DNA from: a phage
Strand: one strand, 5' to 3'
Sequence record: PZ027503.1
DNA length: 64,000 nt
The position numbers and the translations under genes are program-made. Positions 33,407-57,892 of this stretch are shown here, one piece after another. Each line of letters begins with the position of its first letter. Position 1 is the stretch's first letter. The notes under the pieces are model-generated. The model made no database searches. It had not been told where the DNA came from and worked only from the letters and a program-made list of their open reading frames with translations.

Positions 33407-34416
33407 TATTTCTCCTTAGTCATTATTTCAGACACGGATACACATTCCACTTCAGTAACCCACTCTTTACCTTCTTTATCCCCATTGTGGGAAACAGAGA
33501 CTACTTTAAATGGACCATCATAATCTCGGCTTTTTAACCAGATTGTTTTTTCTGGTAAGATTGCACCATTCATTTGGCATTTAAATTTAACACCATCTGT
33601 AGGTTTCTTTGCCTTCTTAGAGGATTTGGTAACTTTTTTAGTAGGTTTAATATCGTTGTGGAATGGTTCTGGGCTTCCTATTAAACCAGTTTCAGGACTA
33701 ATGTAGGCGCTACGTGCACTAGACATTTGGGAACGTGGAGTAACATAAACAGATCCGTCTTGTATTGACACATTGTGATCAATACTCTTACAAATATGTT
33801 CTAGGTAATGTGAAGTGTTCCCACACATAGCTGTTGCTGAAGATAAGGTTTGGTCATTGTCTACATGTATATTACCTTCTGTAGTCCCTAAATCCTTTAC
33901 CAAATCTGTCACAACACGTTTGATTTTAGTTCCTTTTGGGTAACTGCGGCTTGTTCTTGCTTCTGCAATGTTAATACCACCATCCAAACAGTGTAAAGTG
34001 GTTTTCCTGTCTACCGAGTCAAAAGTATCACTAACCCACTGGATAGTTCCTTTGAAGATCATAACCAACTCTTCACCTTCGTATCCTACCGCTAAAGCAA
34101 CAGCCAAGTTATTTCGGATACCACGGTTTATATAGTTAACAGTATCATCTGAAAGGTTATAAACTACAATCTCTGCTTGGTTAGGATCTTTGTTATTATC
34201 TTTCTTAATACTGAAGGTTATTTGATGGTCTTGCAACAAATACAAATTAGAAGAGGATTTTTCTGTTGTCCCTAACTTGGTATCCAAATCTACTGTAGAT
34301 TTAAATGCCGAGTTCTTAGTTCTCTTCTGTATTGTGTTTGTGGCAGAACCAATTAATAATTTGTATGCCCTGTTTAAATTAGGGGCAGGGGCTTTTGTAT
34401 ACTCTCTTTCTGCCAT
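33406..34416 (-). CDS. putative baseplate hub protein (336 aa)
   Basis: ORF track; synteny. Confidence 0.45.
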   Translation of the reverse strand: MAEREYTKAPAPNLNRAYKLLIGSATNTIQKRTKNSAFKSTVDLDTKLGTTEKSSSNLYLLQDHQITFSIKKDNNKDPNQAEIVVYNLSDDTVNYINRGIRNNLAVALAVGYEGEELVMIFKGTIQWVSDTFDSVDRKTTLHCLDGGINIAEARTSRSYPKGTKIKRVVTDLVKDLGTTEGNIHVDNDQTLSSATAMCGNTSHYLEHICKSIDHNVSIQDGSVYVTPRSQMSSARSAYISPETGLIGSPEPFHNDIKPTKKVTKSSKKAKKPTDGVKFKCQMNGAILPEKTIWLKSRDYDGPFKVVSVSHNGDKEGKEWVTEVECVSVSEIMTKEK

Positions 34417-46078: not shown

Positions 46079-46106
46079 TAGAAAAATTAAAAAATATTAA
46101 ATATTT

Positions 46107-47672
46107 TTAATTCGACAGGTTTTGTGCTGAAGGATCTAGAGCAGAAACAGTATCAGACGTTCCAGTTCCCGCTGTAGCTAAACCATCTCCTGATCGTGAA
46201 GTTTTGTCAGGCATATAGTTATCCATGAATTCAAAGAATTTCTCTTTATTGGCAACAATATCATCAGGGATGCGATATTCAAAACCAATTTTTTCAAGAA
46301 ACTCGTTAATAACTTCTGGGGTTAAAGGTATCGCACCAGAGGCTACCAACTGCTGAATAGCTTTAGCATTTACTTCAATATCAGGATCACCCATTTCACC
46401 ACTGACAAACTTAGGCATATCTTCATCAGAAAGGAAGATATTGTTTAGTCGTAGTGTTTGAGGGATCAGTTGAGAGTTTATAGCTTCTACAACAATATCT
46501 ACATCTCGCTCAATAAAATGAGACAATAGTGTTTGTTTGTTGTCAGAAAGCGCAAAACTTCCTGCATCACCATCACCCATAATCAACACACCCGCACCAA
46601 AGCGGTTATAAATATCCAGTTTACGTTGTTTGATTAGTGCTTGAGTGTCAAACTGTTTACCCGTGCCATCAACACCTTGGAATACAAGATCGTATTGACG
46701 CATCACTGTGCCTTCATAAACGTCTGAAGGCAACACCATGTAGGCTTGCTCACCAGAGTGCAGGTTAGCGATGTTGGCTTGGAGAACTCGAAGAGATTGT
46801 GCTTCATCCCCCGCAGGATCTAAAGATGCCCTGTTTAGAATGTCACTTGGAACCTTAAGAACTGGCATACCGCCTAAATCTTTAGATACCCCAATAACCT
46901 CAAATTCCTGAATAAGAGATTTTTCACGCCAGCTACGATATACAGCTAACAGCGGACTAACTCCTAATGGGTTATTCTCTGTAATGTTGCTACCAACAAA
47001 TAAAACTTTACTGAAAGGAATTTCTTTAATACCCGTTTCTAAAGTTGTATTACCTGGAGCTAACATCGTATTGGTGATATTCTGGTTAACAGATAGAATA
47101 GAACGTCCGTCTGCCGAATATGTAAAAGGTTGAGCCATGTGAAGAGTGTCTTGTGGTCTAAAAGCCAATTTGGTCAATCGCCAATACCCAAAGTAAGGAC
47201 TTTTAGGATCTTCATCCAACTCATAAACTTTCTCTGCGAATGCAAAACCATATTGCTTATATGTCAAAAGTGATCTAACATATTGACGTAGAGGGGCTTG
47301 CATATTGCGTAACATGTAATCAATAAACTTAGCAGCTTTTCTTGACTTTGCCGAGTTTACATTGTATTTTATCTTGAAATCAAAGAATGCTCTATCTACA
47401 AAGATATATGTAGCGTCAAGAGCAGTAGCTACATCAGGGTCTTCACCCATCTCTTTAAAAGTGCGAATACATTCTGGGAAACGAGTCTCATAAGGTTGCA
47501 TGAAATTCGTAAATGCTTTGATTGAGTTTAATCCGATCGTTCCTATTTCAGGTGACAGGAGTAACGTTTTCTCTTTCTCTGCTTCTTTTGTTGGAGAGAG
47601 AGCAGCTTTATTTGCAGCACCTTTGTCCCAGTATTCTGACTTTTTAGTGTACGTTCTTTTTCCTGTTGACAC
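46107..47672 (-). CDS. portal protein
   Basis: 521 aa; immediately downstream of large terminase. Confidence 0.6.
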   Translation of the reverse strand: MSTGKRTYTKKSEYWDKGAANKAALSPTKEAEKEKTLLLSPEIGTIGLNSIKAFTNFMQPYETRFPECIRTFKEMGEDPDVATALDATYIFVDRAFFDFKIKYNVNSAKSRKAAKFIDYMLRNMQAPLRQYVRSLLTYKQYGFAFAEKVYELDEDPKSPYFGYWRLTKLAFRPQDTLHMAQPFTYSADGRSILSVNQNITNTMLAPGNTTLETGIKEIPFSKVLFVGSNITENNPLGVSPLLAVYRSWREKSLIQEFEVIGVSKDLGGMPVLKVPSDILNRASLDPAGDEAQSLRVLQANIANLHSGEQAYMVLPSDVYEGTVMRQYDLVFQGVDGTGKQFDTQALIKQRKLDIYNRFGAGVLIMGDGDAGSFALSDNKQTLLSHFIERDVDIVVEAINSQLIPQTLRLNNIFLSDEDMPKFVSGEMGDPDIEVNAKAIQQLVASGAIPLTPEVINEFLEKIGFEYRIPDDIVANKEKFFEFMDNYMPDKTSRSGDGLATAGTGTSDTVSALDPSAQNLSN

Positions 47673-50847: not shown

Positions 50848-51144
50848 TTAGATTACGATCTTTTTAGGAACGTCATCTGTATTCTGCACGGCAGGGGTTT
50901 CTTCTTCCATAGCTTCATAATGTTCTTCTAACCATTCTTCTACTTGCTCTTTAATAGCTTTAGCTGCTTGGAAGCGGAGAGGTTTTGCTGCATCCTTATC
51001 ATTAACAAGTTCAACAATATACCGCATAGCTTCTAAATAATGCTCTGCAAATAATTCTTTTACACTTGCTTGCGCCGCATCCATTGCGTAAATCTGTTGC
51101 ATTTCGGCTGTTGGTCTTCCACGACCACGTTTTAGTTTAGGCAT
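50848..51144 (-). CDS. hypothetical DNA-binding protein with AT-hook-like motif (98 aa)
   Basis: N-terminal KRGRGRP motif; acidic C-terminus. Confidence 0.45.
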   Translation of the reverse strand: MPKLKRGRGRPTAEMQQIYAMDAAQASVKELFAEHYLEAMRYIVELVNDKDAAKPLRFQAAKAIKEQVEEWLEEHYEAMEEETPAVQNTDDVPKKIVI

Positions 51145-51209
51145 AATAAAATCCTCCTAAACTTTATCTTAACATATAAAAAATAATAAGTCAAGTTTTA
51201 TTCAATATA

Positions 51210-51236
51210 TAGCAAAAAGCCTCCAATAAGGAGGCT
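51210..51236 (-). terminator. rho-independent terminator closing the tRNA array
   Basis: AGCCTCC-AATAA-GGAGGCT hairpin followed on the minus strand by TTTTTGCTATAT. Confidence 0.5.
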
Positions 51237-51351
51237 AATAAATACTGTTAATTTGAAATGCTTTATTATAATTGTGCGTTAAGGAGTCGCACCCCTCCAT
51301 CTTAGAAGGAACCAGGCAAGGTCTTCAAAGATACCGCTGGCAAGCGATATT

Positions 51352-51430
51352 TGGAGGCGGGAATTGGATTTGAACCAATGATCTCCAGCATATGAAACTG
51401 GCGAGGACGACCAGACTCCTCTATCCCGCT
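51352..51430 (-). tRNA. tRNA-Met or Ile2 (anticodon CAT)
   Basis: Manual fold: anticodon stem CCAGT/GCTGG, loop TTCATAT, T-arm ATTGG-TTCAAAT-CCAAT, encoded CCA; A1:C72 mismatch. Confidence 0.5.
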
Positions 51431-51436
51431 ATTAGG

Positions 51437-51506
51437 TATCCCGTGCTGGATTCGAACCAGCATCACAATAAGTTGTGGAACTCTTATCCTGTAAGTCTAA
51501 CGGGAA
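51437..51506 (-). other. degenerate tRNA-like element
   Basis: T-arm GCTGG-TTCGAAT-CCAGC and acceptor-like pairing but no canonical anticodon arm and no CCA. Confidence 0.3.
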
Positions 51507-51508
51507 AT

Positions 51509-51582
51509 TGGTTGTTTCGACAAGAATCGAACTTGTGTCTCACGATTATCAGTCGTGGGTTCTACCATTGAACTACGAAACA
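51509..51582 (-). tRNA. tRNA-Ile (anticodon GAT)
   Basis: Manual fold: perfect acceptor TGTTTCG/CGAAACA, D-stem GTTC/GAAC, anticodon stem CACGA/TCGTG loop CTGATAA, T-loop TTCGATT, CCA. Confidence 0.65.
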
Positions 51583-51588
51583 TTAAAT

Positions 51589-51665
51589 TGGTCGGAATTG
51601 CAGGATTCGAACCTGCGACCCTACGCTCCCAAAGCGTATGCTCTACCAAACTGAGCTAAATTCCG
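51589..51665 (-). tRNA. tRNA-Pro (anticodon TGG)
   Basis: Manual fold: acceptor CGGAATT/AATTCCG, D-stem GCTC/GAGC, anticodon stem TACGC/GCGTA loop TTTGGGA, T-arm GCAGG-TTCGAAT-CCTGC, CCA. Confidence 0.65.
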
Positions 51666-51670
51666 TTATA

Positions 51671-51746
51671 TGGCTGGTCTGTCTGGATTTGAACCAAACC
51701 TACGACAGTCAAAGTGTCGTGTGCTACCTGACTACACTACAAACCA
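51671..51746 (-). tRNA. tRNA-Gln (anticodon TTG)
   Basis: Manual fold: anticodon stem CGACA/TGTCG loop CTTTGAC, T-loop TTCAAAT, CCA; D-stem pairing imperfect. Confidence 0.55.
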
Positions 51747-51844
51747 ATAAATCATTTAATGAAGGGCAACCAGAAGAGGTGTGAGAGAAGGAGAAAACCA
51801 TGAGTAAAAGAGAAAGTTTTCTGGCAACCCTTTATTAAATAATT

Positions 51845-51918
51845 TGGAGCGTTCTACGAGGATCGAACTCGTGCCGCCGACTTGGAAGGACGGAATGCTA
51901 CCGCTACACCAAGAACGC
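51845..51918 (-). tRNA. tRNA-Gly (anticodon TCC)
   Basis: Manual fold: acceptor GCGTTCT/AGAACGC, anticodon loop CTTCCAA, T-arm ACGAG-TTCGATC-CTCGT, CCA; one anticodon-stem mismatch. Confidence 0.55.
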
Positions 51919-51929
51919 CCTACATCTTT

Positions 51930-51959
51930 ACTATACTACATTTTACTATTGGTTGTCAA
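51930..51959 (-). promoter_or_regulatory. sigma70-like promoter for downstream tRNAs (minus strand)
   Basis: TTGACA - 18 nt - TATAGT read on the minus strand; ends about 12 nt upstream of tRNA-Gly 5' end. Confidence 0.55.
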
Positions 51960-52232
51960 TAGTTTTATTGAGTGGGACAGTGACGAGTATCCCATTGGGT
52001 GACTAGCCCTACGTTCGGTAAGCTAACTTAAAATAATACAAAACCAAAGTCAAATATTATTCTTCGTTGCTGTCGATGGGAGAGCCGCTTCTTCTTTTGC
52101 CCCATCCAACCCTACTCCGGTCAAGTTTCAGGTGACTCTTTGTGTGATCAACACAATACTAAGAACACTGTCTTTCGAACAGACCTTGTGCACAGGATAC
52201 GACGATCAATCACAGTGCCCTTAATGTTATGT

Positions 52233-52307
52233 TGGTGCTCCCACTCTGAATCGAACAGAGATCCACGGATTACAAAACCGTTGTAATAGCCATTATACTA
52301 TAGGAGC
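52233..52307 (-). tRNA. tRNA-Thr (anticodon TGT)
   Basis: Manual fold: acceptor GCTCCTA/TGGGAGC, anticodon loop TTTGTAA, T-arm CTCTG-TTCGATT-CAGAG, CCA; U31:U39 mismatch. Confidence 0.5.
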
Positions 52308-52313
52308 AAAACT

Positions 52314-52390
52314 GGGACTCGGCAGGATTCGATACCTGCAATTCCAGAAGCCTCTTGGCGACTGGGGGTTTACCTTAACTCTACAAGTCC
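52314..52390 (-). other. degenerate tRNA-like element
   Basis: Acceptor-like pairing GGACTTG/CGAGTCC and T-arm with 8-nt loop TATCGAAT but no canonical anticodon arm, no CCA. Confidence 0.3.
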
Positions 52391-52397
52391 ATAATTC

Positions 52398-52483
52398 TGG
52401 CGATGAGTATAGGATTTGAACCTATATCGTTCTTTCGAACACGGATTAACAGTCCGCCGCTTAAACCATTCAGCCAACTCATC
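52398..52483 (-). tRNA. unusual tRNA: Asn-type anticodon arm (GTT) in a class-II body with 15-nt variable region, G73
   Basis: Manual fold: perfect acceptor GATGAGT/ACTCATC, anticodon stem GCGGA/TCCGT loop CTGTTAA, variable hairpin GTTC-GAAA-GAAC, T-arm ATAGG-TTCAAAT-CCTAT, CCA. Confidence 0.45.
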
Positions 52484-52489
52484 TTAATT

Positions 52490-52577
52490 TGGTGGTGAGT
52501 GATGGAGTCGAACCACCCGAATCGCAATGATAACAGATTTACAGTCTGCCCCGCTACCCCTACGGAATTAACTCACC
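52490..52577 (-). tRNA. tRNA-Tyr (anticodon GTA)
   Basis: Manual fold: acceptor GGTGAGT/ACTCACC, anticodon stem GCAGA/TCTGT loop CTGTAAA, long variable arm, A73, CCA. Confidence 0.6.
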
Positions 52578-52707
52578 TAAATACTAATATTTAAATTCTT
52601 TTTAAAATAGCCAGTGTTCACACCACTAACTATGAGTTATCGGTAAAGTGGTTACCGCCACTTGCCGAAGATTTACTCTGCTAAAGTAAGCTATATTAAA
52701 AAGAACT

Positions 52708-52793
52708 TGGCGGTAGATGTAGGACTCGAACCTACACGCCGTTTCCGACTACAGTTTAGCAAACTGTCGTGGCTACCATTTCACCAATCTACC
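52708..52793 (-). tRNA. tRNA-Ser (anticodon GCT)
   Basis: Manual fold: acceptor GGTAGAT/ATCTACC, D-stem GTG/CAC, anticodon stem ACAGT/ACTGT loop TTGCTAA, long variable arm, T-arm GTAGG-TTCGAGT-CCTAC, G73, CCA. Confidence 0.65.
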
Positions 52794-52798
52794 TAATC

Positions 52799-52889
52799 TG
52801 GCGGAAGGAGGGAGAGTCGAACTCCCAAGGCTCTTTCAAGCTCGGCGGTTTTCAAGACCGTTTTCGTCGCCACGTCGATTTGCCCTTCC
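52799..52889 (-). tRNA. tRNA-Ser (anticodon TGA)
   Basis: Manual fold: acceptor GGAAGGG/TCCTTCC, anticodon loop CTTGAAA, long variable arm, T-arm GGGAG-TTCGACT-CTCCC, G73, CCA; D-arm irregular. Confidence 0.5.
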
Positions 52890-52897
52890 ATACTTAT

Positions 52898-52927
52898 AAT
52901 CTAACATAAAATAATGTTAGTTGTCAA
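52898..52927 (-). promoter_or_regulatory. sigma70-like promoter inside tRNA array (minus strand)
   Basis: TTGACA - 18/19 nt - TTAGAT/TAGATT; about 10 nt upstream of tRNA-Ser(TGA) 5' end. Confidence 0.45.
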
Positions 52928-53123
52928 TAGTTTTTTAAAACATTTTACCATGAATGGTGACTCCACCAACCCCCGTTCTCAACGAACGGTGCTCTTCGAG
53001 CATTTATGTCTTCTAATATAACCGTGGCCTTTGTTTATAATGTCTGACATACTTGCCTCATTCTCTGCCACCATGATCAGTAGTGGGTTCAAATCACTTG
53101 AGCTAATTCATGTTAAAATGTTC

Positions 53124-53198
53124 TGGTGTCTTTACAAGGAATCGAACCTTGACTAAGAGTTTAGAAGACTCCTGTGCTATCCATTACACCATAAAGAC
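53124..53198 (-). tRNA. tRNA-Arg (anticodon TCT)
   Basis: Manual fold: acceptor GTCTTTA/TAAAGAC, D-stem GTGT/GCAC, anticodon stem GGAGT/ACTCT loop CTTCTAA, T-arm CAAGG-TTCGATT-CCTTG, CCA. Confidence 0.65.
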
Positions 53199-53200
53199 GT

Positions 53201-53275
53201 TGGTGGCCCTGGCTGGTTTCGATCCAGCTACCTATCGGTTATGAGCCGACAGCTCTCCCATTGAGCTACAGGGCC
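53201..53275 (-). tRNA. tRNA-Met (anticodon CAT)
   Basis: Manual fold: acceptor GGCCCTG/CAGGGCC, D-stem GCTC/GAGC, anticodon stem GTCGG/CCGAT loop CTCATAA, atypical T-loop ATCGAAA, CCA. Confidence 0.55.
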
Positions 53276-53484
53276 ATAAATGTGGTAACAGAGACGCTGA
53301 CGATTGTAGAGAACCGCTACATTCTCTAAGACCAAGCCCAACTTTCAGCGTAAAAGTTCTTGAGCCGAGACTATTCCTTTTCCTCTTTGGTAGCTAACCT
53401 CTGAAGAAGTAGTCTCTAACACTACCGCAGTGCAAGCCCCTCTTAACAAAAGTCAACGACCCTGTTACCACACTTGATGAACGT

Positions 53485-53514
53485 ATCCTAACATATGAAG
53501 GATACGTTTGTCAA
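53485..53514 (-). promoter_or_regulatory. sigma70-like promoter at the head of the tRNA array (minus strand)
   Basis: TTGACA - 18 nt - TAGGAT read on the minus strand; followed by about 200-nt leader before tRNA-Met. Confidence 0.5.
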
Positions 53515-53521
53515 TAGTTAT

Positions 53522-53771
53522 TTAAGCATATTCTGCTACCTCTTCACTATCTTTCTTTTCCAGAAGAGCAACAACCAAAGCTTCTGCGTTAAAAGTATTA
53601 ATTTCAAGATCCATCTCTCGCATCAGAGCCAAGAAATCAATAACTTTAACATCTTTAGTGATTACAATAGAAGTTGTACCATTGTTTTCAGATGTGTATT
53701 TTTCTGGATGGAAAAGAAAAACTGCATTGCCGTTACCATCTTCAAACACGTGTTTTTCTAATAGAGACATT
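53522..53771 (-). CDS. hypothetical protein (83 aa)
   Basis: ATG with AGGAGG SD on the minus strand; track ORF extends further upstream without SD. Confidence 0.4.
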
Positions 53772-57535: not shown

Positions 57536-57892
57536 ATGAGTGGTATTGAAAACAACATTTGTTACCAACCTCTTACCTGGATGGGTGAGGGTCATTATGC
57601 GCAACGTGTTATTGTCTGTGCTGCAAATAAGTATATTTTGAATAATGGCGAAGAGTTAATTATTCCTTGTGTTCGACATGCAAATCCTGTACTATATGCA
57701 CAGTTAAACGTGTTGAAAGAAGCAGGTGTAATCAACAAAACTTTGTGCACACCAGATAATCAAGGCTTTATCGATCAGTATTACAATTGGTGGAGTCGTG
57801 CGGATGCTTACATCATCGCGGAAAATGCTGACCAGATCGACCATGAGCGTAATGGTCACGACCATGAATTATTTAGCGAGGGATTATACTAA
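57536..57892 (+). CDS. hypothetical protein (118 aa)
   Basis: ATG with GAGGAGG SD. Confidence 0.45.
   Translation: MSGIENNICYQPLTWMGEGHYAQRVIVCAANKYILNNGEELIIPCVRHANPVLYAQLNVLKEAGVINKTLCTPDNQGFIDQYYNWWSRADAYIIAENADQIDHERNGHDHELFSEGLY

Follow-up and report, generated by a model that had tools for sequence, protein, structure and literature searches.

Predicted folded spacer RNAs and tRNA mimics in the tRNA operon of a Phapecoctavirus

Phage tRNA clusters are now known as counter-defence loci, and the small RNAs encoded within them have been unexplained since their discovery in T4 and T5. The same question is raised by a 64,000-nt stretch of phage DNA (sequence record PZ027503.1; the window, to which all positions refer unless a locus number is given). 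Its minus strand carries, at 51218-53514, an array of twelve tRNA genes that is interrupted by long gaps. What do these gaps encode? The analysis described here indicates that the array is probably one Phapecoctavirus operon in which conserved folded spacer RNAs (called gapA, gapB, gapC and gapE) and two tRNA mimics (tl1 and tl2) lie among the tRNAs and would accumulate as stable small RNAs. The probability of this reading is put at roughly 0.7. The features of the array are listed in Table 1.

The array belongs to Phapecoctavirus, a well-sampled coliphage genus. Region 51200-53600 is 99.5% identical to Escherichia phage SKA64, and at least 80% of this region is carried by 70 phage records, all of which are Phapecoctavirus-type myoviruses (approximately 150 kb, subfamily Stephanstirmvirinae). 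The near-identical phage vB_EcoM_ASO2A already has the same twelve tRNAs and the final terminator annotated. The large terminase gene is located approximately 1.5 kb downstream of the array on the same strand. Neither the phage and its tRNAs nor the phenomenon in general is new, and the anatomy of the array is solid. The initial annotation named neither the genus nor the precedents in T4 and T5. Homologues of the spacers were collected by joining all non-tRNA pieces into a single query against the phage collection, which matched roughly 220 records. Diverged variants of the array are carried by an IMG/VR contig (L003/L016) and by "Pseudomonas phage" PsgM04F (L023). Pattern scans of IMG/VR added almost no diversity, and those for gapB and for D2 (a block within gapD) returned known lineages only.

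The largest alignment was obtained for gapC, the Tyr-leader RNA, which is predicted to form four helices including an 18-bp closing helix. Among 13 sequences from four lineages (alignment A2), 513 of 513 cells at the 40 pairs are paired and seven compensatory pairs are present (minimum free energy [MFE] z = -4.4). Covariation is 0.177 compared to 0.110 in shuffles, with 0 of 500 shuffles reaching the observed value, and slid controls are 39-56% paired. A model built for gapC (R2) scores the window at 131 bits in sense and 45 bits in antisense; homologues overall score 97-137 bits in sense and 23-45 bits in antisense. Sequences with 74-97% identity are found in Vequintavirinae (JES2013 and W70), Justusliebigvirus (phi92 and alia), Certrevirus PBES02 and a subset of Tequintavirus (the T5-like phages HK6, Kenya-K18 and NFG_5581). 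Throughout the four phage lineages, gapC is always positioned no more than approximately 100 nt upstream of tRNA-Tyr or of a Lys-Tyr pair. In T5-like HK6, the element is bounded on one side by a TTGCCC-N17-TATAAT promoter (extended -10) and on the other by tRNA-Tyr, and gapC of this phage is accordingly placed as a predicted primary-transcript leader. Model R2 has no match in the tRNA regions of T5 or SP15, and a scan of IMG/VR for the gapC hairpin gave four chance matches, none with tRNAs nearby.

GapB has counterparts of approximately 70% identity in Seunavirus (phages of Cronobacter, Salmonella and Enterobacter), and in GAP31 it also follows tRNA-Arg. An alignment of seven sequences of the Phapecoctavirus, PsgM04F and Seunavirus types (A1) has 60 pairs, 18 of them compensatory (MFE z = -3.6), and four motifs in unpaired or junction positions are invariant (AUUAGCUCA, ACUGAUCAU, GAGAAUGAG and GGUGGAGUCACCAU). 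In Salmonella phages R7 (L027 615-985) and SSE121 (L028 516-871), an HNH endonuclease gene directly follows the gapB homologue. Homing endonuclease genes inside tRNA regions are also found in T5 and T4.

GapA has a closing helix of 16 bp (GUGGUAACAG...CUGUUACCAC). Variants of both gapA and gapD with approximately 80% identity are present in the IMG/VR contig and in PsgM04F, and the gapA alignment (A7; three sequences, approximately 80% identity) has 73 pairs with 12 compensatory (MFE z = -6.2). Many of its pairs are G-U on the tRNA strand, where the opposite strand would have A-C mismatches.

GapE, which was missing from the initial annotation of this DNA, is a hairpin with a stem of approximately 24 bp and a pyrimidine-rich loop of approximately 40 nt containing an invariant 18-mer (CUCAUGGUUUUCUCCUUC). 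Its alignment (A6; seven sequences) has 24 pairs, seven of them compensatory, and an invariant loop (MFE z = -5.3); again, the G-U pairs favour the minus strand.

In each of these four spacers, a helix joins the first and last nucleotides. Based on covariation, gapA, gapB, gapC and gapE are interpreted as conserved folded RNAs and, as far as these tools show, as undescribed families of a known kind. The initial annotation had suggested that small RNAs could be held in four gaps. Covariation upholds this suggestion for 53276-53484, 52936-53123 and 52578-52707, and support is weak for 51960-52232, the gap that contains gapD. Rfam 15 at the gathering threshold returned tRNAs only across the whole window, and at E-values up to 5 there was nothing credible in any gap of 51100-53700. 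Weak Rfam matches to RyhB, MicA and YrlA were rejected, as they overlie the terminator or true tRNAs; the bacterial Y RNA match (YrlA, RF02553) has 22.8 bits against a threshold of 69 and lies over the true tRNAs at 51525-51644. Absence from Rfam is not evidence of novelty in kind, because none of the stable RNAs of T5 is in Rfam either.

The tRNA mimic tl2 can be assigned to a family. The RefSeq record of T5 (NC_005859) lists RNA3, a "putative tRNA-like RNA," at 33877-33949, directly after tRNA-Asn. Both RNAs have GUAGAGUUAAG(G)UAAACC, a three-helix tRNA-like fold and a T-like loop of 8 nt (YAUCRAAU; UAUCGAAU in tl2) instead of 7 nt. They differ in that T5 RNA3 ends in ACCA whereas tl2 lacks CCA, and the hairpin that replaces the anticodon arm is of different length and sequence; this hairpin varies freely in both respects within the family. 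Seven sequences from the window, phi92 and T5-like types (alignment A5) have 17 pairs in three helices, 93% paired, with 11 compensatory. The covariance model built from this alignment, which includes tl2 and the HK6 copy of RNA3 (R1), gives 86.4 bits for tl2 and 86.8 bits for T5 RNA3; members score 80-87 bits, including the SP15 copy, and true tRNAs score no more than 25 bits. The element is located directly downstream of tRNA-Asn(GUU) in the window, T5, HK6, S124, vaffelhjerte, SP15, phi92 and AMO3598. Sequence, predicted fold and position place tl2 in the T5 RNA3 family, which had not so far been recognised beyond the T5-like phages and had been annotated in T5 only. RNA3 homologues occur in 354 phage records, where nearly all are unannotated or overlaid by spurious coding sequences (CDSs).

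Neither ARAGORN nor Rfam resolves tl1 or tl2 as a standard tRNA. ARAGORN does not call them in the array, and the Rfam tRNA model (RF00005), run on each region alone, gives 25.2 bits for tl1 and 20.3 bits for tl2 (gathering score: 29), aligning the acceptor and T arms and leaving the anticodon arm unaligned. Both have a 7-bp acceptor helix with a stacked T arm. Neither has the 5-bp anticodon stem and 7-nt loop (U33, anticodon, purine 37) of a tRNA: the loop at this position is of 4 nt (CUUA) in tl1, and tl2 has an extended hairpin with an AAGA loop, with loop lengths that vary among homologues. There is no 3' CCA, as tl1 is followed by UACCUAAU and tl2 by CAGUUUU. The initial annotation had placed two tRNA-like elements without a canonical anticodon arm or CCA at the same positions, and had left it open whether they were decaying tRNA genes or structured RNAs of another function.

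Decay, with the gaps as neutral remnants of lost genes, would fit the scores of both elements below the Rfam tRNA threshold, the variable length of the tl1 anticodon-position loop (7, 4 or 3 nt in different relatives), the poor pairing of the tl1 D arm and the absence of tl2 from between Asn and Thr in Tr1 and KP2025. However, compared with L003 and L023, tl1 is 97%, tl2 97-99% and gapE 100% identical, on par with the true tRNAs, whereas gapA (approximately 79%), gapB, gapC and D2 are at 69-83% and the unconstrained sequence of the distal tail is at approximately 40%. The acceptor and T helices of both elements are kept through compensatory changes. For tl2, the 11 compensatory pairs and retention in 354 T5-like phage records already largely refute decay. 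A tl1 homologue is also present in another subfamily and at a different position, right after tRNA-Tyr in the Vequintavirinae phage W70, with two compensatory changes in the acceptor and T stems and no ARAGORN call. It is very improbable that these elements are pseudogenes; of the two possibilities originally offered, structured RNAs of another function is the one that stands. Judged by these comparisons, tl1 and tl2 are under selection, which in tl1 seems to constrain only the acceptor/T half. Membership of tl1 in the RNA3 family was considered and rejected, as its 23 bits with the RNA3 model are at the level of an ordinary tRNA.

Mitochondrial "tRNA punctuation" and the mascRNA of MALAT1 are tRNA-like processing signals, and RNase P needs the acceptor/T-arm half of its substrate. 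Like these signals, tl1 and tl2 keep the acceptor/T half and have lost decoding features. Unlike them, both are flanked by true tRNAs at 2-7 nt, so neither is needed as a cleavage signal, and Asn and Thr are simply joined in relatives without tl2.

Another possibility is that the gaps encode small proteins, as implied by "hypothetical protein" annotations over homologues of gapA, gapB, gapD and RNA3. Short ORFs are indeed present in the gaps, and automated CDS calls cover these regions in PsgM04F, R7, KE22, NFG_5581, Tr1 and SP15. Against this, close relatives are separated by 1-nt indels in gapB and gapA, so gapB is not coding; substitutions fall into compensatory pairs instead of concentrating at third codon positions; and the CDS calls differ in strand and frame between records. 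One ORF is retained in gapA, but 11 of its 34 residues are replaced, often radically, compared to three synonymous changes. The initial annotation had found no tRNA or convincing ORF in the four gaps, and we likewise found no tRNA in them and no ORF conserved across lineages. Coding by the gaps is hardly credible, and the CDSs over gapA, gapB, gapC and RNA3 homologues are very probably false gene calls. Such CDSs are found, on varying strands, at L023 1033-1137 and 1435-1560, L068 11474-11605, L027 472-645, L029 484-603 and L032 350-496 (GenBank/RefSeq). Nearly all other spacer homologues carry no annotation.

The gapE loop allows a more specific proposal. Positions 51775-51803 are the exact complement of a strong translation initiation region (GAAGGAGAAAACCAUGAG), an idealised ribosome-binding site (RBS) plus AUG, such that gapE might be a trans-acting antisense RNA that keeps ribosomes from binding an mRNA of the host or the phage. 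The stem covaries around an invariant loop. Twenty nucleotides of an Escherichia coli type I GAPDH gene (WP_000048659.1), spanning the Shine-Dalgarno sequence through codon 3, match the loop of the window, and this match is present in 3830 of 5426 E. coli genomes (for example, L058 151-170). The best predicted duplex of the loop in the window, -31.5 kcal/mol at 57536(+), is 5 standard deviations from the mean of 1386 candidate starts and involves the start region of a 118-aa ORF. Conversely, the complementary 18-mer is a generic strong RBS that occurs in 26 mostly unrelated viral contigs, so a match of 20 nt in the host should cause far less surprise than the E-value implies. The sequence in relatives is ...AUGAGCG..., which would reduce the GAPDH match to 16 nt, and no second perfect site was found in Phapecoctavirus genomes. 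An antisense role is a long shot, and the GAPDH match is a weak lead only. A small ORF antisense to the gapE loop (Shine-Dalgarno sequence and ATG on the plus strand) was also rejected: its frame shifts between relatives, its predicted peptides have 8-15 aa and unrelated C-termini, and the G-U pairs point to a minus-strand RNA.

It might also be argued that the spacers are passive processing scaffolds or insulators that fold on themselves, offer RNase III or RNase E sites and are degraded after cleavage without further function. Every folded spacer is closed by an end-joining helix, as in the stalks of rRNA processing, and some strains have, where others do not, an additional element of 89 nt with a closing helix. 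The T5 tRNA-Tyr leader, of unrelated sequence, has a closing helix as well, suggesting that shape matters more than sequence. A pure insulator, however, should conserve pairing and not the loop. In gapE, 18 nt of the loop are invariant while the stem varies; gapB keeps its four invariant single-stranded or junction motifs across 30% divergence; and gapC is 74-97% identical across separate phage subfamilies and families. In addition, many neighbouring tRNAs of the array are only 2-7 nt apart, so no spacer is needed for processing. A purely passive role is unlikely, if the most deserving of attention among the alternatives. With respect to the T5 leader itself (L014 9429-9560, minus strand), it lies between promoter P14a and tRNA-Tyr, is unrelated to gapC and has a predicted closing helix of 14 bp; interchangeable folded RNAs seem to occupy the leader position of tRNA-Tyr.

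Transcription of the array is predicted to start at three promoters, P1 to P3. Their hexamers have 10-11 of 12 consensus matches, two have a TG extension, and all three contain an identical 14-mer (AAAACTATTGACAA). The TTGACA element is kept in diverged relatives (L003, L023 and L008): P1 retains TTGACA and TGTTAAGAT in L003 and L023, P3 is 93% identical in these two, and L008 has a TTGACA promoter as well. These are predicted to be conserved sigma-70-type promoters. Phages of the rV5 type are reported to rely on many sigma-70-like promoters, 11 of 33 with an extended -10 (PMC3606486). Across the 64 kb, the 14-mer has just one further, slightly altered copy (TTTTTCTATTGACAAAAC...TAGACT) at 46081 on the minus strand, upstream of a 521-aa ORF (46107-47672).

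The initial annotation had described the three TTGACA-N18-TAnnnT promoters correctly and had concluded that they split the array into sub-operons. Sub-operons have support at the sequence level, in that the promoters are conserved, but no internal terminator was found within the array, and the sole intrinsic terminator outside the tRNA genes is at its end (51236-51218), so read-through from the first promoter is likely. Rather than delimiting units of their own, P2 and P3 would probably supplement this read-through. GapA would form the 5' leader, with a triphosphate end, of transcripts from P1, and transcripts from P2 and P3 would begin a few nucleotides ahead of a tRNA.

The proposed operon would function in the following manner. 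Host RNA polymerase would read from P1, P2 and P3 and stop at the single terminator. The transcripts would carry the twelve tRNAs, at least four folded RNAs (gapA, gapB, gapC and gapE), tl1 and tl2, and two non-coding blocks (gapD and a tail after the last tRNA). In excising the tRNAs, the host processing enzymes would also set free the RNAs in between. RNase P would act at each tRNA or tRNA-like 5' end, together with RNase E and 3' exonucleases, and RNase III might cut the long closing stems, for which those of gapE, gapA and gapC are plausible substrates. The closing helix of each folded spacer would seal the released RNA against exonucleases, such that the spacers would accumulate as stable small RNAs, in the manner of the T4 RNA species I and II and of the "stable RNAs of unknown function" described for T5. 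In a tRNA, it is the acceptor/T-arm half that is recognised by RNase P and by other enzymes that handle tRNA. As only this half is kept in the mimics, they would be processed like tRNAs but could not decode.

Several points weigh against this reading. The covariation alignments contain 3 to 13 sequences from 2 to 4 lineages, and the shuffle control ignores relatedness. A generic promoter scan is not enriched over shuffles (9 sites compared to 7.9 expected), so the promoter case rests on the common extended motif and its conservation. Anatomy, conservation, covariation, strand and the homology of tl2 to RNA3 come directly from the comparisons, whereas transcription and its start sites, processing sites, stability and any function are inferred. 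The literature searched yielded no RNA-seq or Northern evidence for Phapecoctavirus and nothing usable on the transcriptomics of the phAPEC8, rV5 and T5 tRNA regions or on the T5 stable RNAs. The parallel with the latter is one of kind and not of family, RNA3 excepted; in BLAST comparisons of the eight T5 RNAs with the array, all matches apart from RNA3-tl2 are tRNA-like (T-arm) fragments. T5 and SP15 are still viable when the whole tRNA-rich region is deleted (PMC11555353), so any function of the array RNAs would be accessory. Finally, gapD and the tail are conserved in sequence, but the evidence for RNA structure is weak, as D2 and the tail have no thermodynamic signal and little covariation.

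GapD has three local hairpins only, with six compensatory pairs (z = -1.35 for hairpin D1 and 0.0 for D2). D2, which ends CCGAACGUAGG..GUCACCC..GGGAUACUCGUCACUGUCCC, is found throughout the subfamily, with homologues between Thr and Gly in Tr1, KP2025, L007 and L008. As D2 is just upstream of P3, it may act as DNA rather than RNA, and the same may apply to the tail. The tail, which like gapE was absent from the initial annotation, is 80-94% identical in all Stephanstirmvirinae loci examined and has one compensatory pair (z = -1.9). With regard to the extra element mentioned above, the Gln-Pro interval of ASO2A (L001 1967-2059) contains approximately 89 nt with their own closing helix (AUAACAAAGGU...ACCUUUAGAAUGUUAU) that are missing from the window at 51666-51670 and present in some Phapecoctavirus strains only. 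Its presence and absence suggest that spacer RNAs are gained and lost as cassettes.

Table 1. Features of the tRNA array in order of transcription; promoters and spacer RNAs are predictions. Operon parts are numbered from the promoter that opens them.
Feature	Position	Strand	Part	Description	Support
P1	53485-53514	-	1	Promoter, TTGACA-N18-TAGGAT, TG upstream, AACTATTGACAA before it	
gapA RNA	53276-53476	-	1	Multi-branched 5' leader of ~200 nt; ends 2-3 nt before next tRNA	
tRNA, CAT anticodon, probably Ile2	53201-53275	-	1	T-loop AUCGAAA	ARAGORN, Rfam, CCA; Ile-CAT by tRNAscan-SE in ASO2A
tRNA-Arg(TCT)	53124-53198	-	1		ARAGORN, Rfam, CCA
gapB RNA	52938-53122	-	1	~185 nt, closing helix; after tRNA-Arg	
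P2	52898-52927	-	2	Promoter, TTGACA-N18-TAGATT, TG upstream; predicted start just upstream of tRNA-Ser(TGA)	
tRNA-Ser(TGA)	52799-52889	-	2	Atypical D arm	Rfam tRNA-Sec below threshold; ASO2A annotation; CCA
tRNA-Ser(GCT)	52708-52793	-	2		ARAGORN, Rfam, CCA
gapC RNA	52592-52707	-	2	Tyr-leader RNA, ~116 nt	
tRNA-Tyr(GTA)	52490-52577	-	2	Class II	Rfam 39 bits; ASO2A annotation; CCA
tRNA with Asn anticodon GTT	52398-52483	-	2	Class II shape	ARAGORN, Rfam
tl2	52314-52390	-	2	T5 RNA3-family tRNA-like RNA: acceptor helix, variable hairpin replacing anticodon arm, T arm, no CCA	
tRNA-Thr(TGT)	52233-52307	-	2		ARAGORN, Rfam, CCA
gapD	51973-52232	-	2	5' hairpin D1 (52131-52232) and conserved block D2 (51973-52130)	
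P3	51930-51959	-	3	Promoter, TTGACA-N18-TATAGT, 11/12 matches; predicted start just upstream of tRNA-Gly	
tRNA-Gly(TCC)	51845-51918	-	3		ARAGORN, Rfam, CCA
gapE RNA	51747-51844	-	3	98 nt, between Gly and Gln	
tRNA-Gln(TTG)	51671-51746	-	3		ARAGORN, Rfam, CCA
tRNA-Pro(TGG)	51589-51665	-	3		ARAGORN, Rfam, CCA
tRNA-Ile(GAT)	51509-51582	-	3		ARAGORN, Rfam, CCA
tl1	51437-51506	-	3	Intact acceptor and T arms, 4-nt loop at anticodon position, no CCA	
tRNA-Met(CAT)	51352-51430	-	3	A1:C72 mismatch, 5-bp D stem	ARAGORN, Rfam, CCA
Tail	51268-51351	-	3	Conserved 3' tail after last tRNA	
Terminator	51218-51236	-	3	Intrinsic, AGCCUCCUUAUUGGAGGCU then UUUUU; operon end	Annotated in ASO2A too

All twelve tRNA genes encode a 3' CCA, in agreement with the initial annotation. 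ARAGORN calls ten, Rfam adds Tyr-GTA (match at 52493-52577, 39 bits), and the twelfth, Ser-TGA, has 37.4 bits on the Rfam tRNA-Sec model, under threshold, and is annotated by tRNAscan-SE in ASO2A. The features earlier reported for the two CAT tRNAs, an A1:C72 mismatch in one and an ATCGAAA T-loop in the other, were also seen. The mismatch of tRNA-Met(CAT) is reminiscent of bacterial initiator tRNA; this tRNA has a 9-nt D loop and lacks the three G-C pairs of the initiator anticodon stem, and its counterpart is flagged as a pseudo-tRNA in one GenBank record, Mt1B1_P17. An AUCGAAA T-loop (A54 and A60) is the signature of eukaryotic initiator tRNA and is unusual in bacteria and phages. The Ile2-type tRNA with A54 and A60 is the best non-member match of the RNA3 model (25 bits).

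The tRNA-Asn(GUU) has a 3-bp D stem, a long variable arm (GUUC-GAAA-GAAC), G73 and an encoded CCA, and its acceptor stem resembles that of the adjacent tRNA-Tyr. The class II shape, with covarying variable-arm stems, is also found in HK6, vaffelhjerte, phi92, KP2025, Tr1 and GAP31, and an ordinary class I tRNA-Asn is found at the equivalent place in T5 and S124. Three records with other host labels have 85-99% identity to the array: MG065650 (Campylobacter phage B15), MH252123 (Klebsiella phage ZCKP1) and OR584014 (Pseudomonas phage PsgM04F). These labels may reflect contamination or mis-assignment.

Each conserved element is associated with a particular tRNA: gapC with tRNA-Tyr (in Phapecoctavirus, Justusliebigvirus, Vequintavirinae and some T5-like phages), gapB with tRNA-Arg and tl2 with tRNA-Asn. 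This linkage suggests cassettes that travel together, and the invariant loops and motifs point to specific partners rather than mere spacing. Because T5-like phages can do without their tRNA-rich region unless the host has a tRNA-targeting defence (PMC11555353), the most reasonable guess, by analogy, is that these RNAs have an accessory role in counter-defence or in taking over translation. It could be proposed further that the spacers and mimics are active weapons carried as tRNA-linked cassettes, namely decoys or inhibitors of tRNA-targeting host defences (such as PtuAB, PrrC or colicin-like anticodon nucleases), with gapE silencing chosen mRNAs through its anti-RBS loop and the class II tRNA-Asn possibly included. 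This extension is rather doubtful. Even as an operon of stable RNAs, the array would indicate that the RNAs of tRNA clusters are not peculiar to T4 and T5, and the phAPEC8/phi92/rV5 group would contribute no fewer than four new families of folded RNA, plus two tRNA mimics, that are under selection; several of these move between phage families as tRNA-linked modules. Rfam has no entry for such RNAs, and GenBank records either omit them or annotate them wrongly as proteins, so that annotation could be corrected in hundreds of phage genomes. The 116-nt tRNA-Tyr leader, the RNA3 family of T5-like phages and Stephanstirmvirinae, and the hairpin with an invariant anti-RBS loop are alignable targets.

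Phage tRNAs have a counter-defence role in known systems: tRNA-Tyr of T5-like phages acts against Retron-Eco7 PtuAB, and tRNA-Lys against PrrC and PARIS. The array likewise has a tRNA-Tyr, linked to gapC. The "phage tRNA-Tyr promoter" fragment tested in PMC11555353 comes from SP15, which has no gapC element. Equating gapC with the "strong phage tRNA-Tyr promoter" of Azam et al. 2024 was rejected, as both SP15 and T5 are without the element; the promoter experiment is uninformative on gapC because SP15 lacks this family.

RNA species I and II of T4 are cut from a tRNA precursor and have no known function. Both are encoded in the tRNA gene region (PMC2330249, figure 1 legend). The array resembles this cluster in having small RNAs inside it, with six to eight candidates compared to two in T4 (the T4 sequences were not compared). 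The resemblance to T5 is in the arrangement. RefSeq annotates eight misc_RNAs in the T5 tRNA region ("stable RNA with unknown functions" or "tRNA-like stable RNA") along with several internal promoters. Like RNAI, RNAIII, RNAIV, RNA2H, RNAX, RNA1 and RNA2 of T5, the spacers of the window are approximately 100-200 nt long and lie between tRNA genes on the tRNA strand, and the T5 region, like the array, has internal promoters and several predicted closing helices.

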